64,000 nucleotides of DNA from a virus (IMGVR_UViG_3300047376_000546), one strand, 5' to 3'; shown: positions 12,938 to 37,214, numbered from the stretch's first letter. Notes: a model not told the origin generated them from the sequence alone. Numbers and translations: made by a program.

Positions 12938-12940
12938 GAA

Positions 12941-13540: not shown

Positions 13541-13572
13541 GATATATAACGAATTAGAAAGAGTAAACTAAT

Positions 13573-15321
13573 ATGGCACAATTACAAGTTACCTTATCAG
13601 CATTTAAAAACTATGGAGTTTCTACTGTAAGAACAGGGTTCACTGCCTTCACTGGTAATGGTGGTTTTACTGGTGATGGTGGATTGGACGGTACTCCATA
13701 TGGTGGAATGCTCAAAGTTTTAGATTTAGATTTAAAACGAGAATGGCAATTATACAACGGAATCCCACAATCTGGTAATGAAGTGGTAGACGCCGCAGAT
13801 GGTTCAACCCTAGTAACAAAAAGATTTTTTGACCCAGTATTTCCTGTTGCTGGATATGATGGTACACCTAGTTATGGTACTACTGATGATGGACAACCAC
13901 AATTGCAACATGTAATTGTGTACGATTCTACAGACCAAATGTCACCAAATCAAGGTCAAGTTTCTAGAGGTATCGATCAAAAATTTAGATTGCGTCTTGA
14001 ATATGATGAACGTCCGAGGTTATTTGAAAGTGACAAAGAATTTTCTGCAGAGTTATATCAACTAAATTTAAAAATGCGTAATTTGGGATTAGACACATAT
14101 AGTGACGGTAATGCAATTGATGAAACTCTCGTAAGTACTTGGGGAGAAACCCTAGTTAATTCACATCCTGGCTATGGTACTGTTACAAATGCAAGTTTGC
14201 CGGCGGGATGGGAGGCCACAGTAGGAATTCCAAATCCTTCTTATGCGTGGTTAAAAATTAACATTGCAACCAAAAACCAAATTTTAGATAACGGAGATAT
14301 TACTGCACCATTAGGTATTAGTGATGGTTTAATTACTTTAGAAAATGGTGCATCAGTTTCTACTTCTATCTTACGAGATCCTGGCCAGTGTGTTGATTTA
14401 TTTTTCGAAGATATTGTAATTCCTGAAGATGGTGGTACTATTAATAGAAGTACTCGTTGGAGAAATAAAAGACGCGGCAAAGGTTGGTTTAAAAGATTCC
14501 CCAAACAGGATAGTTCAGTAGCCGGTACATATCCTATGCAATATAGAATTACATTCACAGAACGTGGATTTTGTTTCTTTATAATGGATGATAGTTCAAC
14601 AGACCAAAACGATGATTATGCATGGGTACTTGCACAAAGAACTGTAGATAATCAAACAGGTATTACAAGAACTGATGAATCATCTAGATTCCCATTACAT
14701 TGTATGTATTCTTGTTCAAGGGAAAGTGTTTCGCCTAGAGATTTTGGTGTATACTTTACTCAACAGGCTGCAAATTTACAGACTGCAGCAAATGCTATTG
14801 GTAATGTGTATGATGAATCTGGAAATGAATTTTCGGTATCCGAATTAAATTCAGATTCATTATATATTTTGAATCCATATGACAGAGAAGATTCTCTCGC
14901 AGATGAATTTATGGCAAAAAATATTTGGAGATTTGTTGCAAGAGAATTTGATATCGTAAAACCATGGGATGTACACAAAGATTGTACTAGACACCAGACA
15001 GATAGTAATGCAATTATCAACCCAATGGAACAACTTGCAATTACAGATGATAACAGGTTTGTTATCACTTTCCCAACAGGACTCACTACTCAAAGATATA
15101 TGTATCCAAAAGAAGAAATTGATTTAATTGCATTCTCATCTTCAGAAGTAGTTGCACAGAGTAGTAATGTACCTATGCAAACATACAAACCAGATGGAAC
15201 AAATACAGATAACCGAAGATATCAGGGGATGTTATCAACTCTACCAAATGGAAACGGAATGAGAGTGTTGATGTTAGTGAATGGAGACTATATTTTCAAC
15301 AGTGATGTTAACATAGACTAG
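13573..15321 (+). CDS. Virion protein, paralogue 1 of the four-member 'KPWD-x-H / GNGMR' scaffold family
   Basis: Shares YPxxYRxT...DDYAW...QRxVD...PxHCxY, RFVxRExDxxKPWDxH, IINPxEQL, FPxxxxxQRY and GMxST...GNGMR with the ORFs at 15387, 19230 and 33174. Confidence 0.7.
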   Translation: MAQLQVTLSAFKNYGVSTVRTGFTAFTGNGGFTGDGGLDGTPYGGMLKVLDLDLKREWQLYNGIPQSGNEVVDAADGSTLVTKRFFDPVFPVAGYDGTPSYGTTDDGQPQLQHVIVYDSTDQMSPNQGQVSRGIDQKFRLRLEYDERPRLFESDKEFSAELYQLNLKMRNLGLDTYSDGNAIDETLVSTWGETLVNSHPGYGTVTNASLPAGWEATVGIPNPSYAWLKINIATKNQILDNGDITAPLGISDGLITLENGASVSTSILRDPGQCVDLFFEDIVIPEDGGTINRSTRWRNKRRGKGWFKRFPKQDSSVAGTYPMQYRITFTERGFCFFIMDDSSTDQNDDYAWVLAQRTVDNQTGITRTDESSRFPLHCMYSCSRESVSPRDFGVYFTQQAANLQTAANAIGNVYDESGNEFSVSELNSDSLYILNPYDREDSLADEFMAKNIWRFVAREFDIVKPWDVHKDCTRHQTDSNAIINPMEQLAITDDNRFVITFPTGLTTQRYMYPKEEIDLIAFSSSEVVAQSSNVPMQTYKPDGTNTDNRRYQGMLSTLPNGNGMRVLMLVNGDYIFNSDVNID

Positions 15322-15332
15322 AAGAAAAGTTT

Positions 15333-15340
15333 TATAAATA
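15333..15340 (+). promoter_or_regulatory. T4-type late promoter box TATAAATA
   Basis: Exact match in the intergenic region before the ORF at 15387. Confidence 0.8.
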
Positions 15341-15386
15341 TATTCAGATAAACAAAAAGTCCTAAAAATTTTAAAGGAGATTATTA

Positions 15387-18300
15387 ATGCCAAGTTCAAG
15401 TGGGTATAGTATTCAAAGAAATGAGATTATTAATATCTCTCACAGACAACACGTAGAATACCATACAGGTGGCGGTTCTACAAGAGTGTTTCCATTACGT
15501 TCAAAAATCGATTACGAAGATAAAGATTGGAATTGGGAAATTAAAGTTGGTGAAGTAAGATATTCTATTGACAGAACACAAGGTAAAAATTCAGTTGATG
15601 GTACTACAACAGACCCCGATGTAACATCTTGGGAAGATGGTACATATAAAGAAGGTTCACAACTTGCCGGCCTAGGTTCTGTAGAATTTGATAGAAGTGC
15701 CGGAATTTTCGGTTCTTTGATTTTTGCAGAAGAATATAGACCAGTATCTGGTGATACAGTTGAGGTTAGATTTCAAGAGGCGCAAGATTCTTGGACAGGT
15801 ACAGATGGTGGTTTATTATACCAACTTGCAAAAGACTTGACTGTTCATCCTTATGACACACCAGAATTGTTAAAGGCAACACATGCAACACCTCTTGACG
15901 TTAACGGCGATCCAGTAGCGGCTGGATATACAGATGCAAGTGTTACAAAACTTAGACATACTTTAACTACACAATATAACGATGATTATACCACAACAGG
16001 AATTGAGGGTGTACAGAAAACTTTTAAACATCTTTATAAAGTTGTTAGAGAATGGAGAACTTCTTTTGAAAAGGATATCTCTACCATTGGATCATCTAAT
16101 GTTGTATTGACTGCAGCATCTGGTACTGCAATGTTACCATTCACTAGAGGTGATTTGGGAGATGGAGAATTTAGAGTTTCAATTAATGGAAAATTATTAC
16201 CAGAAAGTTTTTACACAGTCGAATCAGATGACGCGACTAGAAGAAGTACTATTACATTACTTGCTGGTTCAGAAATTACATGGGTAGACTCAGCAGATCT
16301 CAATAATGTTAATGTTGCAATCGGATATCATTGGAAACATTCTTTAGATGTTCCATATGGTGCATTAGTAGGAAAGGCTGGATTGGGTCCAATTCAAACT
16401 GCAATAAGTGGTGTAAACCATGCATTTGTTGCGAATGATGGTATTGTATTTATTCCCGCCACTTCTTCACAACAATATGCAATATTAGATTTAAATTGGG
16501 ATGCAGCAAATCAAACATTTACAGTCAATACTGACGGTGGTGGTCAAGTTCTGGCAACTTCGGATCAAAATTCATATATTGATGCTGGTAGCATCTTTTT
16601 GATTGAATACGAAGAAGTTGATACATATGCACCCGCATTTAACTTGATTTATCCAAAACCATTATCCAATAATAAAGTAGATGTTGAATATGCACTAAGA
16701 GATATCAGTGATAAATTTTTAGTTGAATCATCTAAAGGGGTAGATTTGTTGTCTGATGACACATTGACACCAGAATATACATCTCCTACTTCAAATCGTA
16801 AACCCCAAAAATGGAGATTGCGTTTTGAATGGGATAGAAAACTTGCATCTGTAAGAGTTAATGTTGCAACTTCATACCAATTACTTGATGACATGTCTGT
16901 GACAAAAGGACAATCTAGAGATGGTATCAAAGGTCCAGTATCTAGAGAGCCTGGAGAACTGTGTGATATCTATAAAGAACCTAATGTTGGTAGAGGTAGT
17001 ACTTATCAATTAATTAAGTCTAAATCAGATTTTTATAGAAGATCTCAAAAAGATATAGACGATACTGCACGAACATATCCTTTATCATATAGAATTACTA
17101 TTACTGACCATGGTATGGGTTTCTTTATGTGGGAACAAGCATCTGTAGATCAAGATGATGATTATGCGTGGTTTGTTGTACAGAGACACGTAGACCAAAC
17201 AACAGGACAACCAGAGTTTACTGGAAAGTCTCCTGTCCACTGTGTGTATTCTCCATGTAAAAGACCAATAGATATTGCAGATTTAAACCAATACTATGCC
17301 GCATCTGATATTAATGATTTAACAAAGACACCAAATCTTTATACATCATTAGGACAAATGTTGGAAACAGAAGGCCCAACACTTTATTTTGACCCAACAG
17401 AGACAATGTTTAATGGTACGGTAAACGCACTAGACTTTACAGGTAAAGGGTATTTGACAGGTACTGATGCGTCTGGAGACAGTACTGGAGAGAAAAAAGA
17501 ATTAGATGTTGGTATCGTTGGTTCTAAACTGACTCAAACAACGGATTATTGGTTGAAAGGTTATCAGTGGCAAGTAACAGATCCAGCTACTTTTGATTCA
17601 AGTGCATTCAATTTTCCAGCAGATTTCACGACGATAACTTCAAACGAGAGAGTTAATGATTTAGAAATTGTCGGGTTTACAGAGTTGCCTAGAGATGGTG
17701 TATCTTCTACTGCAAAATCCAAAGGCTCTAGTTGGGTTATGGATTCTAGACTAGCTCCACATTTTTCTGGTAATGTAATTTATCCAGAAAATAGAATTGA
17801 ACGTGTTTCTACTTTTGTAACTGCCGCAACTGATGCAACCGATGGTATTCCAGATGGTGCAACCGGCGCAGCGCCTGGAGATTGGTCAGACCCTTCATAT
17901 GCAATGTTGGACATTCTATACAACGAAAATCAAGCAAACCAAACGAAGGTTTTAGATTCTTTGATTGTTGCTATTGATGGACAAGAATTGATTAGAGATA
18001 CAGATGCATATATTCTTAATTATGACCAGTGGGTAAGAATGGGAGATCCATCAACAGGTCATAGATTTATACAATCACTTGATGCCGCTGGTGTAACTAA
18101 ATTGGGTAGTAGTTTTAAACTACCAGTTGAATCTACTGCAGCAGTACCAGATTATATTAAAGAAATTTTTGATGGTACATCACAAAATGCTGCAACATAT
18201 AAGGAAGGTGTAGACCTTGATTGGACCGTATACAATCCAACCGATCCCACTGGTGGTGCGAGTATGGCATGTAGTGTTATAAACCCAACAACAAAAGAGG

Positions 18301-19175
18301 CATATAAAATACACTTCATTTATGCATTGTGGGAAATCTTTGGTGATAAATATAAGACTCCTGTAAATTCATCAACTGGATTAAATATTAGTAAATATAC
18401 AAATCTAACTGGTGCGTCTGTGAATGGTAGATTGCCTGGCGATCCAATTTGGTCATTATTAGACCCAACTAAAAATGTATATATCTATGATTTCTTTAAC
18501 CAAACATTATTGTTTAGAGATGCACCAAGACCTAGTGCAGCATTAACTGTTAAATTAATTAATTACGTATTTGCGGACCCAGCAGGAAACGCATATTATA
18601 TCGAAACACCTGAAGATAGAGATTTTCCAGAGAGAAATCAAAATTTCCAAAAAACAATTAATAGATTTGTTGTTAGAGAACAGGATGTATTAAAACCTTG
18701 GGATTTCCACGTATCTGCAACTATGCATGAAATTGATTCAAATGCAATTATTAATCCACAAGAACAGTTGTCAATTACACAGGATAGAGACTTTGTATTC
18801 TCATTCCCAACTCAACTTACATCACAAAGATTTTATTATCCAAGAAGTGAACTTGATTTGATTACAGTTTCTTCTGCAGACTTTAGTACTCAATCAGGTA
18901 GTATTGAAATTGAAAAATATACAGATTCTGATGGTTTGAATGCACAGTTTACAGTTGGTGGACAAGGTTTTGATGTAACATCCGCTGGTACTGCACACCC
19001 ATACGCTGGACATGTAGGACCAGATGGACAGAAATACTACTGGAAGAAAAATAAAAGAAGATATGAAGGTATGATGAGTACATTACCAAACGGAAATGGA
19101 ATGAGGATCTTTATGCAAACTGCCGGTAGTAGTATCAAATTTACTGATACCAATGAAGGTGGCGCTCCAGCGTAG
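15387..19175 (+). CDS. Virion protein, paralogue 2 of the scaffold family (1262 aa)
   Basis: Same conserved blocks as the 13573 ORF (TYPLSYRITITDHG, PVHCVYS, RFVVREQDVLKPWDFH, GMMSTLPNGNGMR), with large insertions. Confidence 0.7.
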   Translation: MPSSSGYSIQRNEIINISHRQHVEYHTGGGSTRVFPLRSKIDYEDKDWNWEIKVGEVRYSIDRTQGKNSVDGTTTDPDVTSWEDGTYKEGSQLAGLGSVEFDRSAGIFGSLIFAEEYRPVSGDTVEVRFQEAQDSWTGTDGGLLYQLAKDLTVHPYDTPELLKATHATPLDVNGDPVAAGYTDASVTKLRHTLTTQYNDDYTTTGIEGVQKTFKHLYKVVREWRTSFEKDISTIGSSNVVLTAASGTAMLPFTRGDLGDGEFRVSINGKLLPESFYTVESDDATRRSTITLLAGSEITWVDSADLNNVNVAIGYHWKHSLDVPYGALVGKAGLGPIQTAISGVNHAFVANDGIVFIPATSSQQYAILDLNWDAANQTFTVNTDGGGQVLATSDQNSYIDAGSIFLIEYEEVDTYAPAFNLIYPKPLSNNKVDVEYALRDISDKFLVESSKGVDLLSDDTLTPEYTSPTSNRKPQKWRLRFEWDRKLASVRVNVATSYQLLDDMSVTKGQSRDGIKGPVSREPGELCDIYKEPNVGRGSTYQLIKSKSDFYRRSQKDIDDTARTYPLSYRITITDHGMGFFMWEQASVDQDDDYAWFVVQRHVDQTTGQPEFTGKSPVHCVYSPCKRPIDIADLNQYYAASDINDLTKTPNLYTSLGQMLETEGPTLYFDPTETMFNGTVNALDFTGKGYLTGTDASGDSTGEKKELDVGIVGSKLTQTTDYWLKGYQWQVTDPATFDSSAFNFPADFTTITSNERVNDLEIVGFTELPRDGVSSTAKSKGSSWVMDSRLAPHFSGNVIYPENRIERVSTFVTAATDATDGIPDGATGAAPGDWSDPSYAMLDILYNENQANQTKVLDSLIVAIDGQELIRDTDAYILNYDQWVRMGDPSTGHRFIQSLDAAGVTKLGSSFKLPVESTAAVPDYIKEIFDGTSQNAATYKEGVDLDWTVYNPTDPTGGASMACSVINPTTKEAYKIHFIYALWEIFGDKYKTPVNSSTGLNISKYTNLTGASVNGRLPGDPIWSLLDPTKNVYIYDFFNQTLLFRDAPRPSAALTVKLINYVFADPAGNAYYIETPEDRDFPERNQNFQKTINRFVVREQDVLKPWDFHVSATMHEIDSNAIINPQEQLSITQDRDFVFSFPTQLTSQRFYYPRSELDLITVSSADFSTQSGSIEIEKYTDSDGLNAQFTVGGQGFDVTSAGTAHPYAGHVGPDGQKYYWKKNKRRYEGMMSTLPNGNGMRIFMQTAGSSIKFTDTNEGGAPA

Positions 19176-19190
19176 TATTATAATGATGAT

Positions 19191-19198
19191 TATAAATA
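19191..19198 (+). promoter_or_regulatory. T4-type late promoter box TATAAATA
   Basis: Exact match upstream of the ORF at 19230. Confidence 0.8.
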
Positions 19199-19229
19199 TA
19201 GATAAACAAACATATGGGGTAAATAAAAG

Positions 19230-22200
19230 ATGGCATCTACTTTAACGCAACCATTCGCATCAGCTGGATTTTCAGTACAAAGAACTGAAATTACTAGTGT
19301 TATGCAACCAACCTATGCGGAATATTTTGTGAGTGATGGTGTCACTAGACATTTACCACTCAAAAGATTGCCAGATCTTGGTTTGGCCGATATTGCTTCA
19401 GTAAGAATTTTTGTAAATGAATTTAATGAATTAATTGCAGACAATTATACCGGCGACGATACATATCCAGATAGTGGTGATTTTTTATTCAGTGACCAAC
19501 AAACATATGATCCAGGCAGTGGAGTAATTCAAACTCCAAACGGTTATATTTTGTTTAATACTGGAAAAATTCCTACATCTGGTGCAACTATAAAAATAGT
19601 ATATTTTATAAATCCAGAAAACTATACTGAATATGAAGATGGTGTTTTGAGAAATCTTGCATTAGATTTATGTTTACATCCATATAAAAATAACTTTACA
19701 TCAACATTCGAAAATCAATCTCAAACTGTTGCACCACTAACAGTAACTGGTGCAACAGGAGTTGGTGCAACTATGATTGCGGAATTTAGTGATGCACCAG
19801 TAGGTAGTTGGTTAGTAGATGGGTCTGCTTCTACTACACTTGTAGGTAAACGAATTAGAGAAGTTTCTGGTACTGGTATTGCAACAATTGCATCTATTAC
19901 CGATGGTACTACCATTACTGCAACTGTAGATGTTCCGTTTTCCCAAGTTACTGCGGGCGATAAAGTTTATTCTAAAGGAGAGTGGTCTCTAATTATTCCG
20001 GCAGATGAAGTTGAGGTTCAACCTTATAATTTGATTTATCCATATGAAACGGAAACTTCAACAACACCAATTTCAATTGACGTAAACGGACAACAAGATC
20101 ATACTGCTGTTATGAAGGCAATTCGTAGAGTTGGTAATTTACTAGTAGTAGAATCTGAAAAGGCAACCGACTTATTGTCATCTAGATCAGATATTAATTC
20201 AGTTTCAGAGGCCATACCTACAAATTTGAATTTACCATCGCCAGTTAGACAAAGACGCTCTCCACAAAAATGGAGAATTCGTTTCTATTATGACGAAAGA
20301 GATGATTACGTGCATGTTAACGTTGGTACAAAATATCAACTTCTAGATAATGGTGATACTACTAGAGGGCAGGATAGAGATGGTACGAAGAAGTCCGTGT
20401 TTAGACTGCCGGGCGAGCTCGCCGAAATTTATTTTGCGCCAGGCATAGAAGGAGCAAAGGCAAAAGCAGGATTTTTCCGTAGACAAGGTAAAACATCATC
20501 TGATACAAATAATACATATCCAATTACTTATAGATTGACATGTACAGATCATGGTACTTCTCTATTTATGTTTGATCAGGCATCTGTAGATCAAGATGAT
20601 GATTATGCATGGTTTGTTATACAGAGACATGTGGATAATTCTTCGGGTAAAATCGAATTTGAAGATGGTAAGTCTCCTGTGCATTGTGTATATTCCCCAA
20701 GTAAAAGACCTTTTGAGACTTCAGAACAAAATGCTGGATATTACTCATCTTTTGAGAAGAATTTAGATTTTGCTACAACTCCATTTCAAACAACTACAGT
20801 CTCTACAGATTTACAAAATATATATGATGCTTCTGGCAGAAAATTGAAGCCAGGAAACCAAATAGATATTTCTATTATAACCGATAGTTTACCTATACAA
20901 GCAAATGAATATGGTAGTGGTATAAATTATAGTGGACCAAATGCCCAGAAAATTTATAATACTCCAACTGGTACATCTGCTTCAACCAAAACAGTGGCTT
21001 TGCAAAGTGTTTCTGGTGGTGGTTATGTAGATGATCAAGCCACCGCGCAGAGAACCACGAACATAACAACGGTCAATTCATACGATTACATAACAGTAAA
21101 CCAATATGATGCAGCATATAACGATAAACTTGGTCCAGCTATGTTGGGATTAGAAATTGAAGAAGTTGTATTACTTGACACGATTGACAACGATTCAGTA
21201 CATGCAGTATTAGTTGAAGGAGTTGATTATAAATTTGAAATAGACTCAGTTACCCCAGCAGTATATACTGGTTCTACACTAACAACTCAAGAAATGGTTT
21301 CGCACAAAATGAGTTTTCTTCATCCATCGGGCAATCCTTTGGAAATTGGTGGGGTCGTCTTTCGCAACACCACCATCAGCTCCACCAACACTAATCCTAC
21401 ATTGGGCCCAGATACAACCCCCAAAGTACGTGTCAAATATAGATGGAAAGGTGCTGGTTATCTAAATAAATATATCAATCCATATGGCCGACAAGGAGAT
21501 GCAACTGCACAATTAGAAGATGCCGCAAGATTGAATGTATTTGTCGAGAATGTTGAATTAGATCATGCAAGGAATCCATACGAATATACAGTAAATTCTA
21601 CTGGTGATGTATTGTGGCCTGCAAATACTGCATCATTTCAAGGTACTAGTTTAAATACATATGTATATAGTTTACCAGTAGATTCCGTATTCCTTAGAGA
21701 ATCTTTATCCGAAGGTCAAGTCTTGAAAATGCAACTACAAAATTATGCAGAAGACCCAGAAGCACAAAACTTATATTTAATAGAAGTACCAGAAGATCCA
21801 GATTTTCCAAAACACTGGACAGATATGCATAGAGAGGCAAAAGGAATTTATAGGTTTGTTGTAAGAGAATATGATGTATTAAAACCTTGGGATTATCATG
21901 TCTCTGCAGTTATTCCACAAGTTGATAGTCCTGCTATTATCAATCCAGTTGAACAATTATCTATTACTCAAGATAAAACCTTTGTGTTTAATTTTCCAAC
22001 ACCAATGGCATCTCAAAGATATATATATCCAAACTCAGAAATGGATTTAATTTGTTTCTCAGGTGCAGATTCATCAACTGAAGGTGGAATTACCAATGTT
22101 GGTACAGCCACATCTCCAAAATATGATTTAGATGGAGAACAAGATAGTAGTGTTGGTGGGGGAACCGCCGGCACATCTACACTTAAACCATCAGATGCAT

Positions 22201-22379: not shown

Positions 22380-22404
22380 TAATTATAATTTAAAAATAAA
22401 GTAG

Positions 22405-22435
22405 AAAAAAGGGGGATTTATCCCCCTTTTTATTT
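22405..22435 (+). terminator. Intrinsic (possibly bidirectional) terminator
   Basis: AAAAAA-GGGGGA-TTTA-TCCCCC-TTTTT hairpin with A-tract before and T-tract after, 25 nt after the stop of the 19230 ORF. Confidence 0.85.
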
Positions 22436-22453
22436 GTTCTCGGCAATTTAATT

Positions 22454-22461
22454 CATAAATA
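22454..22461 (+). promoter_or_regulatory. Variant late promoter box CATAAATA
   Basis: Lies just downstream of the terminator and 7 nt before the ATG at 22469. A re-initiation site would be needed here. Confidence 0.5.
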
Positions 22462-22468
22462 GTAACAA

Positions 22469-24787: not shown

Positions 24788-24788
24788 T

Positions 24789-27908: not shown

Positions 27909-28935
27909 AAAAGATGACAACTGCACAGGACATGGATGTTTCCCACCAAGAGCGAATAATGGTGGCAGTGGTAATGTAAAAACAAATAGTAAACCCACCC
28001 ATAGAAAAGGTGATGGTTGGACACCACATGGATGCCCAAATGTACCACCACATGGTTCGTCTACTGCAGCTGGGTCTGCAACCGTATATGCAAACGGCAA
28101 GGCAGTTGCGCGAATAGGTGACCCTGTTGCGTGTGGTTCTGCTATTGCCCAAGGGAGTGGTAATGTATTTGCTGGAGATAGTGGAGAATCTTTCACCCCC
28201 CCAGAGTTCACATTTCCAGAATTTACACCATTCCCTGCCCCTAAATTAAGAGATGCGCCAGCATTATATCCTAGTAATATACAAACAGTGGATGATTCTG
28301 CAAATGCAAATCCTATTAACAACTCAGAACAAATAGAATCTACAAATGGCGAGAAACCAGAATATGAAGAATTGTCTAGTGGAATGTGTGGGGAAATGCC
28401 CCAAAGAAACCCCTATGAGGTCGCACAAAAGGCATTATCTATGGGAAATAGTGCATGGAAAGAAACTGGCAATAACCCAAACATTACTGCATTATGGGAT
28501 GAAATTGGATATCAAGGAAATCAATATGCAGATGAAACTGCTTGGTGTGCGGTCTTTGTAGGAGCAACCCTTAAAAGAAGTGGTAACAAATATCATAAAA
28601 CTGCAATGGCCCGTGGTTACGAATCATATGGTAAAGAAATACCATGGAATGAAATGCAGCCTGGCGATATAGTTGTAATGTTTAGAAATGGTAGGAGTTC
28701 TGGTAGTGGACATGTTGGGTTTGCGACAGGAAATTATACAAATAATACAGTTGATATGATAGGTGGAAATCAGGGTAACACTTTATCTGTAAGAACATAT
28801 AAGAGAAATAGTGGGTCTAGAGGTGTGTTAACCATTCGACGTGCAGTATCTTGTGAAGATGGAAAAACTCTTGCGCCGCAAGTAGGACAAGTAAATGCAC
28901 CAAAGTCCTCTGGGGTTGGTGGTCAAGTTACATAA
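27892..28935 (+). CDS. PAAR spike-tip domain fused to a TIGR02594/CHAP-like Cys-His peptidoglycan hydrolase domain
   Basis: The N-terminal 95 aa are a gp5.4-type PAAR domain (CTGHGCFPP, HRKGD, H...H, VARIGDPVACGS). The C-terminal domain has ETAWCAVFVG, PGDIVV, GHVGF and IGGNQGN. Confidence 0.85.
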   Translation: MPAVTRKDDNCTGHGCFPPRANNGGSGNVKTNSKPTHRKGDGWTPHGCPNVPPHGSSTAAGSATVYANGKAVARIGDPVACGSAIAQGSGNVFAGDSGESFTPPEFTFPEFTPFPAPKLRDAPALYPSNIQTVDDSANANPINNSEQIESTNGEKPEYEELSSGMCGEMPQRNPYEVAQKALSMGNSAWKETGNNPNITALWDEIGYQGNQYADETAWCAVFVGATLKRSGNKYHKTAMARGYESYGKEIPWNEMQPGDIVVMFRNGRSSGSGHVGFATGNYTNNTVDMIGGNQGNTLSVRTYKRNSGSRGVLTIRRAVSCEDGKTLAPQVGQVNAPKSSGVGGQVT

Positions 28936-28938
28936 ATA
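28931..28938 (+). promoter_or_regulatory. Variant late promoter box CATAAATA
   Basis: Overlaps the PAAR gene stop. It is followed by an AAGGAG ribosome-binding site and the ATG at 28954. Confidence 0.4.
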
Positions 28939-28953
28939 GTTATAAAGGAGCGC

Positions 28954-31900
28954 ATGGTGGCATTCGATACAGTAAGACCTATCAAGGCAATATTCCAAAA
29001 TGATGGAGAAGTAATTCTTGGTGAATTTACTGATCAAGATCTTATTGGCATTGATATGGGTGGTACTGGCGCATCCAATTCTGCGACAGCACGTAGTAAT
29101 TTACAATTAATACATTATAGAGAATTTCCCACTTTTAGTGATTTTGATACTTTACCAGAATCTGGAAAACTTGCAAAAAACAGTGCAGATGGAAAGTTAT
29201 ACTACTCACATCAAAATGCTTGGTTACAGATTGGACAATCTCAATTAGTTTCTGGTACTGATAATTCTGGAGTATTTGTAGATGAAACCGAAGTAGAAAA
29301 ATTTATATTTACTGGAAGAATTGTATATTCATATGATGGGCCTACAAAAACTGCAACTCTTACAGTAGATGTAGATGATATTGAAGATAGATTAGATATT
29401 CTCGAAGATGACGATCAAACAAGTGGTTCTGTTAGATATTTAATCAAACAAAGATTTGATCAATTACTTGATGGAGTAATTCCAGAACTTGACACACTGA
29501 AAGAGATTGCAGATTCTTTAGGAGACACTTTAGATTTTAGAAATGATTTTGATAATCATGTTTTAGACTTTAATCAATTAGATACAGATTTTACAACATT
29601 CAAACAAGATATAACTAATTTTGATAATGTGGATTTAACAACTAATGCACCAATACAAGGTGATGCAATTATTTGGGATCCAACAACTTCAAAATGGATT
29701 CCTGGCGCATCATTTAATAGTTCGGATTTTGAAGCGGCATTTCAGACCAAAACGGCAGCAGATTTAGACGTTGGAAATGCATCTGATGGCAGTTTTAGTG
29801 ATGGTGCATTGGTAATCGAATCTGATAGAAAAACTGCGGATGTGATTGATGATTTAAATGAAGCTCTTGACAACATAAGAAAAGGTGTATATGTTAAGTC
29901 AGTTTCATTTTCTGCAAATCCCACTTTCGGTGGACAAGGTACATATGTCACATTAAATTTGACAGTTGATGGTACTGCAAATAGATATGATATTGATTGG
30001 GGGGATGGGTCTAATACAAATAACACCACAGACTCTACTCCAAGTCACACATATACATCAAATGCAAATAGTCCATATACAGTAACTGTTCGTGCATATA
30101 ATTCAAGTGGTTCTGGTGCTGGTAGTGAAGCTTCATCAACAATAGAAGATTATATTATTATCTATACAACAGATCCAGCGGCCGCGTTTAGACTTTATAG
30201 AAATGCAACAGGGGGGTCTGAACTGTCTGGTAATAATTTATATGTAATCGAAGGCGACAGTTTATACTTAGAAAATATATCAACCCAGACTACTATGGCA
30301 GATGTAGAATATACAATGGATTGGGGCGATGGTACTGCAGTTGAAAATATCACTTCAGATAATGCAGATGGTGGGGTAACTGGTAATAGATTACAACATA
30401 CTTGGGGATTTGGTACACACACTGGCTCTGGGCGAGACACTTTAAGATTAACTCTTTCAAGTCACAGTACAGCAAACCCTAATGTAATTCCAAAACAAAC
30501 AACAAAGTCATTAAAGGTATATGATATTAATCCATCTGCGCCGCAAGGACTAAGTTCTAAAAGTATTTCATTTAGTGGTAATACTGGATCTTCCCCACTA
30601 CTTGCGAGTGGTTTCACTGACAATACAACAGGTACTACTTATAGTATAGGTTCTTCTGTACAAAGAACAACATCTACAAGTGGAAATATTTCATCAACTT
30701 CAATATCATCATTTGCATATAATGCGGATAGTGGTACATTAACTGCACTCGTTAACGGCGTAGACAACGGAAATAAAGTATTGGATTCTAATAATAATAC
30801 TGGCACATATACTAGTCTAAAAATTGATAGTGAAAGTGATTATAATGGATTAAACTCTAGTGGTAGTTACAGTAATTTTAATAATAGTATATATTATCCA
30901 AATTTATATAAAGGATTTAAGGCAAAAATTCAAAAATCTGCAGCTGCAGTGCCTGTAGGAGTAAATAGATATCAACTTTCGCACAGTGGAACAGGAAACA
31001 CTAACTCAATAGAGTTTGTTAAAGATAATCTAACGTCTACTCCAACTCTGACTGCTGGAACTATTTCAGAAAAAACTGGATTTTACAAATATATAAGTGG
31101 AATTCCTTATTATACATACAATTCTAAATTAACTTGGAGTGGTATTTCGGTATCTAATTTGGTCGGTCAAACATACAGAAATACATCACAAGTGCTATAT
31201 GTGACTGGCAGTAACAATTATGAAGGCACGTCAAGTCAATCTATTAATAACAAGAGTTTTAATTATTCTGCAATAGATGGCACAACAACCATGTTGCAAA
31301 GTGGATATCCATTAGTAAATACTGGTGTTGGTACTCCATATGCAATTGGGGATTTAGAAATTGATATAACAAATTCTGGAGTTAGAACAATTGAATCTAT
31401 ACGTGCAGTTGCATACAACGTAAATGGTACAGGTAGTTATGTAAATAATAATCAAAAAATTGCAGTCCACACATCATCACAATCTGGTATTAGTGAGCTT
31501 TCTATTCCTGTAAGTTCAAGTTTAGGGTCTGGTTATAACGATAGTGGAAAAAGAATTTTTGATTTTGCATCAGAGATTACTGATACTCCTACATATAATA
31601 ATACGATCAATTTTTATACAAACAATCTTTACTCTGAAAGTTCAGACCCAGGCGTATCTGGTACACAAGAGGCAACAGTTCGACTTGGTGTATTGAAACA
31701 TAGTCTGGATGATTATAGTGGATTTTTACCAGTTGGCCCAGATCGAAGTGGTGATTCGGGTGTTCAATATTTTACTTTTGCGTTTAGGAGAACTATCACT
31801 GCAAACTTTAATATTAATATAAGTAGTAGTGGTGTTTCTGGTGTTTGGATTGCAGCGCCGGGCACTACAATTGACACTGCAAGTAGTTTAAATGGTTGGT

Positions 31901-32142
31901 TGGATTGTAGTGTACAATATGCTGGCGCTGGTGTGCCAGGCGAAAGTACATCAGGTGGTGGTAATGGTAGTAATGGTTGTGCGTCAACTGGTGGAGATAG
32001 AATACAATCGAATACTTCATTGAGTGGTTCTTATACTATGACTTTAGGTACAGAAAATTTGACTAACGCAACTAATAATGTTGCATTGGTTAGAATTGCA
32101 TTAAACTCTGGACAATCAGTTAACTCTATTAGTATAACATAG
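28954..32142 (+). CDS. Virion fibre/appendage protein with two PKD-like domains
   Basis: YDIDWGDGS...TPSHTY...YTVTVRAY and YTMDWGDGT...HTW are PKD signatures. It also has the fibre motifs PELDTLKEIADSLGD and QGDAIIWD...KWIP, and an S/T/G/N-rich beta C-terminus. Confidence 0.7.
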   Translation: MVAFDTVRPIKAIFQNDGEVILGEFTDQDLIGIDMGGTGASNSATARSNLQLIHYREFPTFSDFDTLPESGKLAKNSADGKLYYSHQNAWLQIGQSQLVSGTDNSGVFVDETEVEKFIFTGRIVYSYDGPTKTATLTVDVDDIEDRLDILEDDDQTSGSVRYLIKQRFDQLLDGVIPELDTLKEIADSLGDTLDFRNDFDNHVLDFNQLDTDFTTFKQDITNFDNVDLTTNAPIQGDAIIWDPTTSKWIPGASFNSSDFEAAFQTKTAADLDVGNASDGSFSDGALVIESDRKTADVIDDLNEALDNIRKGVYVKSVSFSANPTFGGQGTYVTLNLTVDGTANRYDIDWGDGSNTNNTTDSTPSHTYTSNANSPYTVTVRAYNSSGSGAGSEASSTIEDYIIIYTTDPAAAFRLYRNATGGSELSGNNLYVIEGDSLYLENISTQTTMADVEYTMDWGDGTAVENITSDNADGGVTGNRLQHTWGFGTHTGSGRDTLRLTLSSHSTANPNVIPKQTTKSLKVYDINPSAPQGLSSKSISFSGNTGSSPLLASGFTDNTTGTTYSIGSSVQRTTSTSGNISSTSISSFAYNADSGTLTALVNGVDNGNKVLDSNNNTGTYTSLKIDSESDYNGLNSSGSYSNFNNSIYYPNLYKGFKAKIQKSAAAVPVGVNRYQLSHSGTGNTNSIEFVKDNLTSTPTLTAGTISEKTGFYKYISGIPYYTYNSKLTWSGISVSNLVGQTYRNTSQVLYVTGSNNYEGTSSQSINNKSFNYSAIDGTTTMLQSGYPLVNTGVGTPYAIGDLEIDITNSGVRTIESIRAVAYNVNGTGSYVNNNQKIAVHTSSQSGISELSIPVSSSLGSGYNDSGKRIFDFASEITDTPTYNNTINFYTNNLYSESSDPGVSGTQEATVRLGVLKHSLDDYSGFLPVGPDRSGDSGVQYFTFAFRRTITANFNINISSSGVSGVWIAAPGTTIDTASSLNGWLDCSVQYAGAGVPGESTSGGGNGSNGCASTGGDRIQSNTSLSGSYTMTLGTENLTNATNNVALVRIALNSGQSVNSISIT

Positions 32143-32151
32143 GATAAGTAA

Positions 32152-33096
32152 ATGTCAATACCCGATAATCAAAAATTAGACTTTCTTTGGAAAAAATTAG
32201 GTTATGGTGCATCCAAGACAGACTTAAATTCTATAAAGGGCGCAACTAACGAAGCTATCCCAAGTCCATTATTATTACGTGGAGATAGACTTTGGTCAGA
32301 ATCTCAAGAAATTCCTGCAATTATTCCAACCGTAAATAGTACATATGTTGAATTATATTTAAATTCAAATACGGTTGAGTGTGATATGGATTTAACGTCT
32401 ACATCAAATCGTACTTGGAAAACAAATTTAACAGATTGGATACCACCAGAATTTGGTAGTACATATCAAGTAAAAGTTTATATAGATTCTGCAAGTTCTG
32501 CAAATCCAACATCCGGCAATCAAATATTTGCAGCAGGTTCTGGAAATGATGATGAATGGTTTTTTGATTATCAATCTGGCATTTTACATTTTATTGGTAA
32601 TAATCTACCATCTGGAATTTCTGGAAATAAAATTTATATTTCTGGTGCAAGATATATAGGAACATTTGGTACGTCTGGTGGACAGACACAAATTGAACTT
32701 GATTCTCTTTCAAATCAGTTATTAGAATTAGAAGATAGAGTAAACACAGATTTAGATGATTTAATACAAGACGTAGACAGAAATAGAGCAACTATAAATA
32801 GTGTGCAATATTCCTTGGCAAATTTTAGTTATGGTGGACATACTGAATCACAAATAAATAGTTTAGTACAAAGTCAACAACAAGTTGGTATTGTATATAA
32901 TAGTGTAACAGAAAGATTCGAACCTCAACAAATAGCATCAGGCACATCCGGCGCATTTTTACATTTTCAATATTCAGATGGTACAAGAGATGATTTAAAC
33001 TTGATTGCAACATTTGACGGTTCAGAAGTATTATCTTCCTATGTTAGATTTTTCTTTTCAGATGGTACACAAGATAATATAGATATGGTTACATAA
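32152..33096 (+). CDS. Conserved-type structural protein, likely partner of the upstream PKD protein
   Basis: N-terminal QKLDFLWKKLGYG and DDEWFFDYQSGILHFIG...ISGARYIG resemble a recurrent hypothetical in marine T4-like phages. It has a C-terminal coiled coil and a duplicated FxxSDGTxDxxxL motif. Confidence 0.6.
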   Translation: MSIPDNQKLDFLWKKLGYGASKTDLNSIKGATNEAIPSPLLLRGDRLWSESQEIPAIIPTVNSTYVELYLNSNTVECDMDLTSTSNRTWKTNLTDWIPPEFGSTYQVKVYIDSASSANPTSGNQIFAAGSGNDDEWFFDYQSGILHFIGNNLPSGISGNKIYISGARYIGTFGTSGGQTQIELDSLSNQLLELEDRVNTDLDDLIQDVDRNRATINSVQYSLANFSYGGHTESQINSLVQSQQQVGIVYNSVTERFEPQQIASGTSGAFLHFQYSDGTRDDLNLIATFDGSEVLSSYVRFFFSDGTQDNIDMVT

Positions 33097-33112
33097 TAAG
33101 GATTTTTATTTT

Positions 33113-33120
33113 TATAAATA
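33113..33120 (+). promoter_or_regulatory. T4-type late promoter box TATAAATA
   Basis: Exact match upstream of the ORF at 33174, which has an AAGGAG ribosome-binding site. Confidence 0.8.
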
Positions 33121-33173
33121 ATAGAAACAAAACAAGTTAGTTAATAAAACTTTATGCATTAAGGAGTTCACGA

Positions 33174-36100
33174 ATGAGTAGAGCTATTCAAAGAAATGAT
33201 ATTTTTCAATTAGATGGGTATCGTTGGAACCGAAGAAGAGAACCAGATAAACCATTAATTACACAATTAGCAGAAGATTTAATGGACAATGGTTTTATAG
33301 ATGTTGGCCCAGAAGTCGTAAAAATTACAGTTAGTGATGCAGCTCTAACCAGATATATTGATAATATTATTGTGTACTATTATGATTCCAATACAAATAT
33401 TATTAATGAAGGGGCTCACGGATTAAGAAATGTTACGTCAGAAGGATATGACGGAACTTTTACAGAATGGAAAATGGATAATAATGATTTAAAAATTAAA
33501 CAAATCCAAGACGATCCTTATACTGGATTTGGCAACGATCACTGGGCAGATTATCTTTCAACATCGTTGCCTGGCTCCAAATCCTCCACTTTTAAAACAC
33601 AGTATCCTGGCGAAGATGCAACATATTTTGATAAGTTCTTAGGACCAAACGCCGAGTTATTTGCATATTTAAACCCAAACCCACAGAATCAGGATGCAGA
33701 CGGTAATTGGTTGAAAGTATTACCAAATGTACCTACTAGAAAGAAGAAGGCCGATGAACAGACAGGTTATTTTGGATTAAGTTTTATATCAGAAAGAGTT
33801 TATAGAAACGAATTTGCAAAAATTAAAAGACTTATTACTACTAGTGCAAGATATGTCGTTGCTTATCCAGACGTTGCAAGTGGCATTGATTCAAAAGGAA
33901 ATTTAAGAAATTATGTAGAAGAACTAGAACCTAGTGGTGTTATTAATCACCATTTTTGGTTTACAACATACAAAGATGAACAATTTTTCCCAGCCGATGT
34001 TACCGAACCTGCAAAATGGGAAGGTTTTATTGGGTTAAGTTCTGAGCCTGGCATATTACAGTATGGAGACACTTACGAGTTTACATTGACAAGTACAAGT
34101 CAAAAAACTTCTGCTTCAATTACAACACTAGATTCGGTTACGGTTGATAGTGATGAAGTCGAACCTTTTCTAGAAAAGGTTTATAATAGTTTTGTTAATT
34201 CTGCAATTGCAAATCCATTATCTGGTTATTTGACTCTTAGTGTAGACCCATCAAGAATTGGTATTATGGAAGGTTATGCAAACCAGAATTCTGTCGAACA
34301 AACTATGACGGTAAACAGAATTCCTTACGTAAAACAGTATGGAGCTACACCAACTGTTGGATTTCCATCTGGTTCAAACCAAAGTTTCTCTGGCCTCACC
34401 GAGCCTAAAATCGCCCAACACGGTACTGTAACCTATAATTCTGGATTTAAAATGAATTATAGAAATTTAAATACCGATCAACTTGGACTTAACACCGCCG
34501 GCTGGAGGTGGTATGAAGATTTCGGGCAATCGAGCCAGTTCAGATCTCCTGTCAGTGTTGGTGGCAAAACCCACTATATGGAGGGTTATGTACACAAACA
34601 TACTATTAGTGGGTTTGATGGTGCAGACCCTGGCGATACATTCGAGGTTAAGTTAACCAATTTGGTTGATGAATCTGCCGAAAAACCTTGGACTGCTGAT
34701 CCAATTGAACTTTCAATAACTTTCACAGCAAAGGTTCCTATGACTGCATTAGCATTAACAACTGCTATGGCTAATGAGATGAAACTAGATCCATATATTT
34801 CGCAATATATGTTTGTAAAAACTGGTACAAATTATATCGACGTAGAATATGCAGAAGATTCTAGTGCATATTTAAGAAGATCAAAAAAACGTACTGCCAC
34901 CGATGATAAGGGGTGGGGGTTATTTAATGCTAAGTCTGTCGCATATCAAACTGCGGTCACCGCTGGTAGATTCACCGCTGGCACTTTTGCTACATTTAAC
35001 CACGATTGGTGGACTATGGCAAACCTAACTAGCAGCAATCTATCCACACGTAAAAACTTCTTTGCATGGATAGAAAATTCCGTTGCGGCAAATATTTCAA
35101 CCACTTTTGCAACTGACGCGACTAGGTTTGGTACTGGTGGATTATTTCCATCCACTGGCACTATGGACGCAAATACCGAACAAGGTAGTATTAAATTTGT
35201 TAATCCTTACGCACATTATGGTCCAACTGTTCTAACCGATGGGTTGTTTGCAGAAGATGTTCCAGATTTGGCAAAGTTCGGTTCTTCGGTGACTTATACT
35301 GAGAATACTTTAGTCACAAGTGACCCATTAACTTTTAATTTCCAAACAACAAAAGAACCAGCAGTATCTAATGTTGGTAATATTAGGTTATCGTTCCCAT
35401 TATCAAGAGATATGGGCACTTTTGCAAATCCAGTTAATAATATTGGTTGGGAAGTTTTCCCTGCAATTCAAGGTAACAGCTCAGCATCAAATTATACATA
35501 CTCATATTATCAACAAATATTGAGTGATACCTCGGCGGATGTGAAAACAGAAAGACCAACAGGTCCAGAAATATCATTTGATTATGATAAGAGATATAGA
35601 CATCCAAATCAAACACATGGTAGTTTAGATTTGGGATTAACTAAGGCATCGGATTTCCAGTACAACACTTCTAATTTAGATATCGATTCTTTTGAATACG
35701 TAAGAGATTATTCAATGGGTCCAATTGTATTAGAAACATCTAATAGTTCACCACTATCGGGAACTGATGGAGATCAGGCTTGGAGAATTAGACTTAATGT
35801 TTCTAGAGGGTATGAAATCAAAGATGCGTCACCATATATTAACGAGGTTCATATCGAATTAGGAAATAATTCTGTAGACCCACGTTTAGTATCTGATAGA
35901 CAATTTGAATATTTACAATTACATATTGCAACAAAGTATCAATTACTAAGTAATGGTGATGTTACCGAAACACAAGGTGTAGATGTAACTAAACCGGCAA
36001 GAATAAGAGAGCCAGGGTTTCTTGGTGCATTAAGACCACAATATAGTGGATATGTACAATCAAATGTACATTTAATAAACCCATATACACTAAGGGCCCA

Positions 36101-37214
36101 ATTGGATGATGCAGTAGAATCAGAAATTAATATTAGTGCCGGTAGGGTTGGTATTGCAATGGATCAGGTAGAAGGGGTTGATACGTCTGGACTTGCGGAT
36201 ATTTTCGCCAATAATACTAGTGGTTCAGGTGTTAAAAATATCACATATGAAACTAGAGGTACTACTGCCGCTCCTGTGGTTGTTACAAAAGGATTACTTG
36301 AAGATGGAGAATATCGATACGAAGAACAATATTTAACTGGTTCTAGTACAGAATTAATATATGATACACCATATAATACTGGTAATATGCGTATTCAAAA
36401 AGGATTTTTTAGAAGAAGTGGAAAACAATTTTCGGATGTCGCACCATCATATCCTATGAGTTATTTCTTAACTATTGCAGATCATGGAATAGCATTTGCA
36501 GTGAGGGATCAGGCGTCATCATCAGAATCAGATGATAATGCATGGGTTGTTGTTCAAAGACATGTCGATTCTGTTACAGGAGAGCCTGATTTCACATCTA
36601 ATACGCAACCAGTTCATTGCATATATCAAACATCCGAACCACCAGTTCTTTGGTCAGATTATGGTATTTACTTTACAGATAGAGAAATCGATAAGAGACA
36701 AAGTTCTGTTGCATATCAAGGATTATATGACCGAGCAGGAAATTATGTTACGGATTTTTATGTTAATCCAGTTATTGCAGAGGAACTTGCTGCATTTGAT
36801 ATGGAAGGACAGGGTAGATTCCGTAGGTTTGTTGTACGAGAAAAAGATACATTAAAACCATGGGATAGACATGTTTTTGCAGGTCTTAATGAAACCGATT
36901 CACACTCTGTAATCAATCCATTAGAACAATTATCCTTGAATGATGATGGTCAGTTGGTTATCCAATTTCCTAACAGAATTGGTTCCCAAAGATATCTATT
37001 CACTGGAAAAGAGATTGATTTGATTGCATTCTGTGATGGTGGTTCTGTAGGACAAGATACACTAGTATCTAGTGATAGATTTAGTGATAGTGGACTAACC
37101 AATAAGACTAGAACTTACAAAGGTATGATGAGTACAAAAAGTTATGGAAATGGAATGCGTGTACTACTATTAACTGACGGGTGGGGTGTTGATAATTCCT
37201 ACCTTTCATCATAA
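33174..37214 (+). CDS. Virion protein, paralogue 4 of the scaffold family (1346 aa)
   Basis: SYPMSYFLTIADHG, DDNAWVVVQRHVD, PVHCIY, RFVVREKDTLKPWDRH, GMMSTKSYGNGMR, with a very large N-proximal insertion. Confidence 0.7.
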   Translation: MSRAIQRNDIFQLDGYRWNRRREPDKPLITQLAEDLMDNGFIDVGPEVVKITVSDAALTRYIDNIIVYYYDSNTNIINEGAHGLRNVTSEGYDGTFTEWKMDNNDLKIKQIQDDPYTGFGNDHWADYLSTSLPGSKSSTFKTQYPGEDATYFDKFLGPNAELFAYLNPNPQNQDADGNWLKVLPNVPTRKKKADEQTGYFGLSFISERVYRNEFAKIKRLITTSARYVVAYPDVASGIDSKGNLRNYVEELEPSGVINHHFWFTTYKDEQFFPADVTEPAKWEGFIGLSSEPGILQYGDTYEFTLTSTSQKTSASITTLDSVTVDSDEVEPFLEKVYNSFVNSAIANPLSGYLTLSVDPSRIGIMEGYANQNSVEQTMTVNRIPYVKQYGATPTVGFPSGSNQSFSGLTEPKIAQHGTVTYNSGFKMNYRNLNTDQLGLNTAGWRWYEDFGQSSQFRSPVSVGGKTHYMEGYVHKHTISGFDGADPGDTFEVKLTNLVDESAEKPWTADPIELSITFTAKVPMTALALTTAMANEMKLDPYISQYMFVKTGTNYIDVEYAEDSSAYLRRSKKRTATDDKGWGLFNAKSVAYQTAVTAGRFTAGTFATFNHDWWTMANLTSSNLSTRKNFFAWIENSVAANISTTFATDATRFGTGGLFPSTGTMDANTEQGSIKFVNPYAHYGPTVLTDGLFAEDVPDLAKFGSSVTYTENTLVTSDPLTFNFQTTKEPAVSNVGNIRLSFPLSRDMGTFANPVNNIGWEVFPAIQGNSSASNYTYSYYQQILSDTSADVKTERPTGPEISFDYDKRYRHPNQTHGSLDLGLTKASDFQYNTSNLDIDSFEYVRDYSMGPIVLETSNSSPLSGTDGDQAWRIRLNVSRGYEIKDASPYINEVHIELGNNSVDPRLVSDRQFEYLQLHIATKYQLLSNGDVTETQGVDVTKPARIREPGFLGALRPQYSGYVQSNVHLINPYTLRAQLDDAVESEINISAGRVGIAMDQVEGVDTSGLADIFANNTSGSGVKNITYETRGTTAAPVVVTKGLLEDGEYRYEEQYLTGSSTELIYDTPYNTGNMRIQKGFFRRSGKQFSDVAPSYPMSYFLTIADHGIAFAVRDQASSSESDDNAWVVVQRHVDSVTGEPDFTSNTQPVHCIYQTSEPPVLWSDYGIYFTDREIDKRQSSVAYQGLYDRAGNYVTDFYVNPVIAEELAAFDMEGQGRFRRFVVREKDTLKPWDRHVFAGLNETDSHSVINPLEQLSLNDDGQLVIQFPNRIGSQRYLFTGKEIDLIAFCDGGSVGQDTLVSSDRFSDSGLTNKTRTYKGMMSTKSYGNGMRVLLLTDGWGVDNSYLSS

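Follow-up and report, generated by a model that had tools for sequence, protein, structure and literature searches.

Four paralogs with nested insertions in an uncultured marine T4-like myovirus have a core predicted to resemble the JBD30 baseplate fiber proteins

Here, we analyze a 64,000-nucleotide stretch of viral DNA (IMGVR_UViG_3300047376_000546; hereafter, the window, meaning the whole stretch) and four of its open reading frames (ORFs), which begin at positions 13573, 15387, 19230, and 33174 and which we call P1, P2, P3, and P4. The four proteins are paralogs that share a compact core of about 330 amino acids (aa), mainly of beta structure, and insertions of up to several hundred residues enter that core at the same loop sites. 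The core is predicted to share the fold of gp47 and gp48, which form lateral baseplate fibers in Pseudomonas phage JBD30. Our preferred interpretation, held with moderate confidence, is that P1 to P4 are hetero-oligomeric subunits of a baseplate arm or of the baseplate periphery that display added domains.

That the four ORFs are real paralogs is confirmed. An all-against-all BLASTP comparison of the 36 ORFs in the window connected these four alone (E values of 1e-21 to 2e-58): P2 matched P3 at 2e-58 and 1e-44, P1 matched P4 at 2e-55, P1 matched P2 at 5e-38 and 4e-22 and P3 at 1e-28 and 3e-24, and P4 matched P2 and P3 at 1e-21 to 1e-26. A preliminary description of the DNA, made from the sequence alone, had proposed four collinear paralogs, and a regular-expression scan recovered every motif that it listed in the same order. 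It had also put the spacer between the motifs PxHCxY and RFVxRE at about 72, 470, 385, and 65 aa in P1 to P4, respectively, and we measured 73, 471, 386, and 66 aa. P1 (residues 298 to 571) and P4 (1071 to 1336) have an uninterrupted core, and that of P2 (543 to 643 and 1064 to 1256) and P3 (410 to 540 and 849 to 1042) is split. An N-terminal strand motif, SIQRNEI and variants of it (NYGVSxxRTGF in P1), also belongs to the core, because the family hidden Markov model (HMM) and the structural alignments start there. At the DNA level, the best repeats among the paralogs were 68 to 79% identical over 122 to 231 nucleotides (nt), and no near-identical patches were found in the window.

Evidence for the fold comes from structure prediction. 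An AlphaFold2 (AF2) model of P1, built with a 97-sequence family alignment, had a predicted local distance difference test score (pLDDT) of 88.4 and a predicted template modeling score (pTM) of 0.90. When the model was compared by VIA-align with 48,161 PDB representative chains, there was one outlier, chain c of 8rk3, which is JBD30 gp47 (Z score of 16.3, root mean square deviation of 3.8 A, 270 of 317 residues), and the next best chain had a Z score of 3.7. The matching range was P1 residues 16 to 570, and the outcome was the same on a repeat run. Moreover, gp47 was the top match of the AF2 model of P3 (Z score of 11.9), with 239 aligned residues spread over residues 14 to 1034, and that spread directly supports a single fold broken by insertions. 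Both matches therefore uphold the proposal that a single structural chassis has received domain insertions at equivalent loop sites. The fold does have a precedent, as the structures of gp47 and gp48 were solved in 2024. We conclude that P1 to P4 are predicted to share the gp47/gp48 fold over most of the protein. Other searches were less informative: Foldseek comparison of the P1 and P3 models with the PDB gave no row at an E value of 1e-3 or below, such that the gp47 match needed VIA-align; sequence searches of the PDB with P1 and with the 97-sequence profile gave no match; phrog_687, the family of gp47 and gp48, was absent from the PHROG results for P1 to P4; and the AFDB clusters returned uncharacterized proteins only, plus one "phage tail protein" at an E value of 6e-3. 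We note that three BFVD entries with consecutive accessions (A7KUT2, A7KUT3, and A7KUT4; about 270 to 293 aa) are weak fold matches to the P1 model (E values of 6e-3 to 0.18) and could represent a further tandem set, from a large phage of Bacillus.

In JBD30, gp47 and gp48 have similar folds and pair as heterodimers. The baseplate has three lateral fibers, each bent and composed of three heterodimers; the fibers are anchored on the distal tail protein and the upper baseplate protein, and they embrace and bind type IV pili (PMC11445458). P1 to P4 resemble gp47 and gp48 (PDB 8rk3 and 8rk5) in predicted fold, with 75 to 85% of gp47 covered by the P1 and P3 matches; in being paralogous sets encoded side by side, four in the window with three in tandem; in presumably belonging to the tail tip; and in that family members sometimes have added binding domains (PA14 and F5/8 type C). 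Some gp47-family relatives (our P0276, P0282, P0294, and P0307) are about 460 aa long and carry a PA14 or an F5/8 type C domain; therefore, the chassis gains domains in the siphophage and prophage branch too. The two systems also differ. JBD30 is a siphophage with two members of about 310 aa, whose genes come right after the tape measure gene, whereas the window encodes four members of 582 to 1346 aa with large nested insertions, in a T4-type baseplate and fiber block and not directly downstream of a tape measure gene. Moreover, neither sequence nor profile similarity between P1 to P4 and the JBD30 proteins is detectable.

The resemblance to gp47 raises the question of enzymatic activity, as the JBD30 paper notes that gp47 is classed in the nitrilase superfamily (PMC11445458), and P1 to P4 could by that token be virion-borne hydrolases. 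A few polar residues are indeed invariant in the 97-sequence alignment, among them Q355, E458, D517, and R564 (P1 numbering). The alignment contains no invariant Cys or Lys for a Glu-Lys-Cys triad, however, and Pfam-A, including CN-hydrolase, gave no match for gp47, gp48, the jumbo-phage relatives described below, or the cores in the window, even at an E value of 1. No nitrilase was among the fold-search rows listed, and we consider a hydrolase very improbable. The same alignment bears on a metal or interface site that had been suggested for HC and PWDxH. Both motifs are invariant within the marine clade but not across the family, in which all invariant residues are of the types G, Q, P, E, D, and R: P374 is the sole invariant position of PxHC, P464 of PWD is nearly so, and neither H376 nor H468 is conserved. 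A family-wide metal site therefore seems unlikely.

The insertions enter at least five core loops and range from 30 to about 860 aa each. With the N-terminal strand counted as core, about 115, 460, 330, and 860 aa are inserted after it in P1, P2, P3, and P4, respectively. The N-terminal block of P4, first estimated at 750 to 800 aa, is thus real, as the N-terminal motif is found at residue 4 and the core resumes with its next motif at residue 870, and the same site is occupied in the other three paralogs. Homology between the N-proximal insertion of P2 and the N-region of P3 is confined to aa 3 to 156 (E value of 1e-11). In the P3 model, aa 26 to 130 matched 8i4m_e, 8ck1_B, and 7boz_a (Z scores of 8.0, 7.6, and 5.2), and aa 157 to 260 matched 7eeb_E and 9efk_M (Z scores of 9.3 and 8.8); the predicted immunoglobulin-like (Ig-like) sandwich, of a kind found at the base of podovirus fibers, and the predicted barrel are generic small folds. 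The N-proximal insertion of P4 had no Pfam or PHROG match, and Atlas feature searches of the P2 insert and of the P4 N-terminal block gave top scores of 0.78 to 0.80, which is noise level.

How the spacer insertions of P2 and P3 are built is more complex. The two inserts are alike at their ends only (residues 1 to 39 versus 1 to 52, E value of 0.03; residues 397 to 462 versus 304 to 374, 32% identity, E value of 3e-8), and their middles are unrelated. They had been described as sharing a small beta domain that is itself interrupted, but the outermost parts of the similar ends belong to a loop subdomain of the core and not to an inserted domain. Direct reading of the sequences indicated that IYDxxGxxL and Y-x-I/L-x-x-P-E/D-D, which mark the outer ends of the inserts, are also present in the short spacers of P1 and P4, and therefore the large inserts are nested inside the core's own loop subdomain. 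Most of the P3 spacer is modeled with low confidence (pLDDT below 50 at residues 498 to 622, 676 to 689, and 712 to 729). Further variable sites lie between WRIR and IATxYQLL (92, 16, 16, and 47 aa in P1 to P4), between RxPG and YPxxY (52, 44, 38, and 148 aa), and between ExDL and GMxST (37, 73, 79, and 37 aa, or 40 aa more in P2 and P3). In lactococcal phages, "evolved" distal tail (Dit) proteins, and similar baseplate proteins of siphophages, have carbohydrate-binding modules inserted in loops. P1 to P4 are like Dit proteins in principle, in that whole domains sit in surface loops of a conserved chassis, and unlike them in that Dit has an unrelated fold and is single copy and ring forming.

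The four-member set is conserved in related marine phages. A single-protein scan of viral contigs gave no match, but an alignment-based scan of IMG/VR succeeded and found 51 loci. P1, P2, and P3 are in tandem, as in the window, on about 30 distinct marine contigs of up to 204 kb, and P4 lies 20 to 25 kb further on the same contigs. Every P2 and P3 is split at the same HMM position (about 215 to 225). The PxHCxY-to-RFVxRE spacer is nearly constant in P1 (72 to 79 aa) and P4 (65 to 66 aa) and varies in P2 (432 to 785 aa) and P3 (386 to 652 aa); P3 of the window is the shortest P3 ortholog seen, the others being 1195 to 1629 aa. Ortholog cores are 54 to 75% identical to those of the window, and inserts are 30 to 49% identical over 54 to 100% of their length. 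The preliminary description had pictured the inserts as hypervariable, but those of P2 and P3 are orthologous across relatives and differ mainly by insertions and deletions and by faster divergence; therefore, they are not freely swapped cassettes. Judged from these alignments, the inserts are old and faster evolving than the core, with many insertions and deletions, rather than shuffled. Some marine contigs also encode a fifth member or a giant one of 2436 to 3398 aa. The 3398-aa member (locus L012, positions 11240 to 21433, IMGVR_UViG_3300035236_000048) has an RCC1-like beta-propeller (Pfam WD40_RLD, E value of 2e-55) within the insertion that follows the N-terminal portion of its core. This was the only Pfam match among the large relatives, and loci L011 and L014 are similar.

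A maximum-likelihood tree of the core columns of 131 sequences placed the marine proteins in one clade (support of 1.0), within which P1, P2, P3, and P4 were each monophyletic (0.99 to 1.0) and P2 and P3 were sisters. Duplications in jumbo phages were events separate from the marine ones. We considered and rejected the idea of two ancient subfamilies, a gp47 type and a gp48 type, common to all phages, as the tree indicated separate duplications in each lineage. That the family was repeatedly duplicated fits a protein that works as a hetero-oligomer. The tree gave no sign of recent transfer from jumbo phages, and the marine clade was deeply separated from the rest, at about 25 to 35% identity; cross-lineage transfer, which the preliminary description had raised, was thus not supported.

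Relatives outside the marine clade are found in jumbo phages. An exhaustive HMMER search gave 325 clusters at an E value of 1e-3 or below, with proteins of about 310 to 2481 aa in which the core always extends to the C terminus. By tblastn against 50,697 phage records, matches occurred at 121 places in 65 records, from jumbo myoviruses that included PaBG, Lu11, HRDY3, NCTB, Dickeya phages JA and AD1, Erwinia phage Y3, Yoloswag, the SNUABM phages, and a few others. E values were 1e-15 to 1e-20 by tblastn and 4e-15 by Foldseek against BFVD, and the BFVD search also found a homolog pair in Agrobacterium phage Atu_ph07. A similar motif string had been proposed for virion proteins of phiKZ-like jumbo phages; jumbo-phage homologs do exist, but PaBG, Lu11, Y3, Yoloswag, JA, AD1, and NCTB are not phiKZ-like. 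Y3 encodes gp152 and gp151 in tandem, two genes after a 1335-aa "tail protein," Afa-NA1 encodes two homologs right after its own 1335-aa protein, and Lu11 encodes the tandem pair gp246 and gp247; in Y3 and Afa-NA1, the set directly follows a tape-measure-like gene, as in JBD30. NCTB (LT598654.1; locus L056, positions 2153 to 7993) has five tandem core paralogs of 344 to 402 aa each, all annotated as hypothetical, and this is the largest tandem set seen. Moreover, one homolog has been found in virions. PaBG_00261 belongs to the same family, with a calculated mass of 35.2 kDa in the current annotation, and band 10 of the PaBG virion proteome was identified by mass spectrometry as gene product 261, an "unknown" protein of 34.8 kDa (PMC7412058, Table 1). 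The jumbo-phage proteins, NCTB 241 to 246 among them, are true sequence homologs of P1 to P4 that are multicopy in each genome and have one member in virions, and they differ as bare cores of about 320 to 400 aa whose duplications are separate from those of the marine clade.

The family already has a name in PHROGs, one that P1 to P4 are unlikely to deserve. The sole PHROG match of the core is phrog_12249 (E values in Table 1), described as "tail sheath," and the PaBG, Y3, and Lu11 members match the same profile. A literal reading would make P1 to P4 tail sheath proteins or sheath paralogs, in keeping with the product names in PaBG, Y3, Lu11, and other phages. That product name, however, is limited to RefSeq versions (NC_022096, NC_047880, NC_017972, and others), and the GenBank originals say "hypothetical." The window has a bona fide gp18 elsewhere, and therefore the four paralogs are not sheath; in PaBG virions, the sheath consists of gene products 213 and 76 rather than 261 (PMC7412058); and the one clear fold match stems from a siphophage, hence from a virion without a sheath. 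No Pfam sheath domain was found at an E value of 0.1 or 1. Sheath chains were not among the fold-search rows listed for the P1 model, but absence from that list does not exclude the family. Jumbo phages with RefSeq "tail sheath" members of phrog_12249 possess separate, true sheath genes. For these reasons, we do not find the label credible and regard it as probably a propagated mislabel, and we give next to no weight to a sheath function for P1 to P4.

The position of the four genes points to the baseplate. PHROG scans indicated that the window covers the structural module of a T4-like myovirus from gp6 to gp23. The genes recognized encode a baseplate wedge protein that resembles gp6 (541-2235), a phrog_358 protein of 2255 aa (2267-9034), a fusion of PAAR and lysozyme (27892-28935), and several fiber-like proteins (37680-48149), and they continue in the T4 order with gp13 (51423), gp14, gp15, gp16, gp17, gp18, gp19, gp20 (portal), gp22, and the first part of gp23. 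Every large ORF lies on the plus strand, and the G+C content is about 35%. The portal is merely 51 to 53% identical to those of OM43 phage Melnitz, pelagiphage HTVC008M, and cyanomyoviruses; therefore, the window derives from an uncultured marine T4-like myovirus. A search of phage records for DNA nearly identical to positions 13573 to 19175 gave no match. P1 to P4 lie between the gp6/gp7-like genes and gp13, where T4 encodes gp8 to gp12 and wac, and profile scans recognized no gp8, gp10, or gp11 in the window. P1 to P4 are therefore like the T4 gp8-gp12 network in genomic position and likely in a general role at the baseplate periphery. They differ from it in having no similarity in PHROGs, Pfam, PDB sequence searches, or listed PDB fold rows, and T4 uses trimeric fibrous proteins, whereas the fold of the core is globular. 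In line with the preliminary description, these searches recognized no counterpart of P1 to P4 in T4 gp9 to gp12 or wac, with no PHROG or Pfam match and no T4 baseplate chain among the fold-search rows listed.

The same gene position is what one would expect if P1 to P4 were rigid subunits of the baseplate wedge periphery that stand in for gp8, gp10, and gp11 and make up an outer rim and a network to which fibers attach, as opposed to protruding arms, with inserts that serve as struts or as docking platforms for the fiber proteins encoded at 37680-48149. Genes downstream do encode separate fiber-like proteins with gp9/gp10-type connector domains (phrog_677), the four-member set is fixed across the clade, as a stoichiometric lattice would need, and the inserts are conserved orthologously rather than swapped. 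The inserts outpace the core in evolution, however, and vary by hundreds of residues, which suits exposed parts over buried struts, and the sole structurally characterized relatives form protruding fibers (PMC11445458). We regard the rigid rim as a serious but rather doubtful alternative.

P1 to P4 are probably expressed late. The octamer TATAAATA is of the type that marks late genes in T4. We counted 21 copies in the window, about twice the expected 10.8, a number that was not attained in any of 100 shuffles. The plus strand carries 18 of these copies, most of which fall between genes and ahead of structural genes, including gp13, gp18, gp19, gp22, and gp23; copies also lie 39 to 61 nt upstream of the start codons of P2, P3, and P4. 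By analogy with T4, we think that these sites may act as late promoters.

A further possibility is that the family forms the hair-like tail appendages of the "hairy Myoviridae," among which the Y3/Lu11/PaBG phages are grouped as one lineage (PMC6143709). Among the matches listed, the named cultured phages (Y3, Lu11, PaBG, JA, and AD1) all belong to that hairy lineage, a few unplaced records apart (PMC6143709; hairs of Y3, PMC13282480), and a hair subunit might also account for the "tail sheath" label. The homolog-bearing hairy phages form one related lineage, however, and therefore their co-occurrence counts as a single observation. Moreover, the other hairy lineage (RaK2/CBB-like) gave no tblastn match, JBD30 has the fold but at its baseplate, and the genes are baseplate proximal in the window, in Y3, and in Afa-NA1. 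We find it improbable that P1 to P4 are hair subunits.

We return to hetero-oligomeric, domain-displaying subunits as our favored interpretation. P1 to P4 would be late-expressed virion proteins, presumably located at the tail tip, whose core was duplicated into four anciently fixed paralogs in a marine T4-like myovirus. The four cores would co-assemble by core-core contacts, as gp47 and gp48 do, and the resulting hetero-oligomers would make up either arms or a lattice at the baseplate periphery. The inserted domains (the Ig-like sandwich, the small barrel, and others) would point outward and provide reach, host-surface contact, or spacing, and an adhesive or binding role for them seems plausible. 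Several observations weigh against this interpretation. The AF2 model of P3 is mediocre (pLDDT of 66.6), with low confidence even in part of the conserved C-terminal core (residues 882 to 934). The Foldseek comparison of the P1 model with the PDB was not significant (E value of 0.14, probability of 0.54), and the rows of highest probability were two JBD30 baseplate chains. By hhalign, the 97-sequence family profile scored a probability of less than 1% against both gp47 alone and a 42-sequence gp47 profile. Because such profile-profile comparison finds no sequence relationship, common descent with gp47 and gp48 is something we infer from the fold, the multicopy habit, and the gene position. JBD30, moreover, is a siphophage with a threefold baseplate, as opposed to the sixfold T4-type baseplate expected here; hetero-oligomeric assembly is suggested by analogy only; and core-column net charges, a crude test of interfaces, gave no obvious complementarity between paralogs. 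Going further, we speculate that the marine clade, made up of abundant T4-like myoviruses, replaced the gp8-gp12 periphery with a hetero-oligomeric, bead-like appendage of four fixed gp47/gp48-fold paralogs, in which every bead has spliced-in binding domains of its own, and that the same building block underlies the hairs of Y3, Lu11, and PaBG, a tentative idea that we do not expect to hold in full.

Genes that neighbor P1 to P4 have features of their own. Directly upstream of the array, an 842-aa protein (10409-12937) has a GLEYA/PA14 adhesin-type domain at aa 713 to 800 (Pfam E values of 7e-13 and 4e-7). Adjoining P4 on its upstream side, a 314-aa protein (32152-33096) matches phrog_9417 and has a subthreshold match to the ETX/MTX2 aerolysin type (E value of 0.0045; 17.3 bits against a cutoff of 22). 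A 1062-aa protein (28954-32142) and a 127-aa protein (37233-37616) have N termini with 49% identity across 47 aa, a similarity that points to a common attachment module. Coordinates of P1 to P4, their insertions, and other features are collected in Table 1.

Table 1. Positions of the paralogs, their insertions, and related features in the window
Feature	Position	Strand	Evidence
P1, 582 aa, smallest paralog; contiguous core with modest loop insertions relative to the ~330-aa jumbo-phage form	13573-15321	+	phrog_12249, E 9e-49; AF2 model; JBD30 gp47 fold match
P2, 1262 aa, split core	15387-19175	+	BLASTP; HMM positions 31-218 at aa 421-636 and 226-361 at aa 1083-1260; phrog_12249, E 6e-47
P3, 1049 aa, split core	19230-22379	+	BLASTP; HMM; phrog_12249, E 8e-35; AF2 model; JBD30 gp47 fold match
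P4, 1346 aa, contiguous C-terminal core	33174-37214	+	BLASTP, E 2e-55 to P1; HMM positions 50-359 at aa 862-1354; phrog_12249, E 2e-39
P2 N-proximal insertion (aa ~22-475), between SIQRNEI strand and WRLRF block	15450-16811	+	Motif positions
P2 spacer PxHCxY-RFVxRE (aa 622-1092, 471 aa), large nested insertion within the ~70-aa loop subdomain of the core	17250-18662	+	Motif positions; orthologous inserts
P3 N-proximal insertion (aa ~26-347): predicted Ig-like beta-sandwich (aa 26-136) and small beta-barrel (aa 157-260)	19305-20270	+	Fold search of model
P3 spacer PxHCxY-RFVxRE (aa 489-874, 386 aa), nested insertion at same site as in P2	20694-21851	+	Motif positions
P4 N-proximal insertion (aa ~12-869), between AIQRNDI strand and WRIRL block	33207-35780	+	Motif positions
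P4-specific ~100-aa insertion between RxPG and YPxxY (148 aa versus 38-52 aa in P1-P3)	36051-36428	+	Motif positions
gp18-like tail sheath gene, 765 aa (context only)	55903-58200	+	phrog_23 "tail sheath," E 4e-124; flanked by gp15, gp16, gp17, gp19, and gp20 homologs
TATAAATA upstream of P2 start codon (47 nt)	15333-15340	+	Motif scan
TATAAATA upstream of P3	19191-19198	+	Motif scan
TATAAATA upstream of P4	33113-33120	+	Motif scan

PHROGs already contained the sequence family, and a structure with the fold has been available since 2024. What is new is that the PHROG family is linked to the fold, that its label is probably wrong, and that the family occurs in T4-like phages, where it has a fixed, four-paralog, multiply inserted form. 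The phrog_12249 description of "tail sheath" is a probable annotation error that RefSeq now repeats in its records for many jumbo phages. Pfam has no entry for the fold family, which spans siphophages, jumbo myoviruses, and T4-like phages and was duplicated independently many times. Annotation is almost wholly lacking for the proteins with which uncultured marine T4-like phages recognize their hosts, and here about 13 kb per genome of coding sequence labeled "hypothetical" is linked to a solved, fiber-building fold, which provides a concrete and testable model. If P1 to P4 co-assemble, then fibers would be made from globular hetero-oligomers with loop-inserted domains and not from trimeric coiled or beta-helical shafts. 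Ultimately, if the bead-like appendage is real, it would represent an unrecognized and widespread class of nontrimeric fibers common to siphoviruses, jumbo myoviruses, and T4-like phages.

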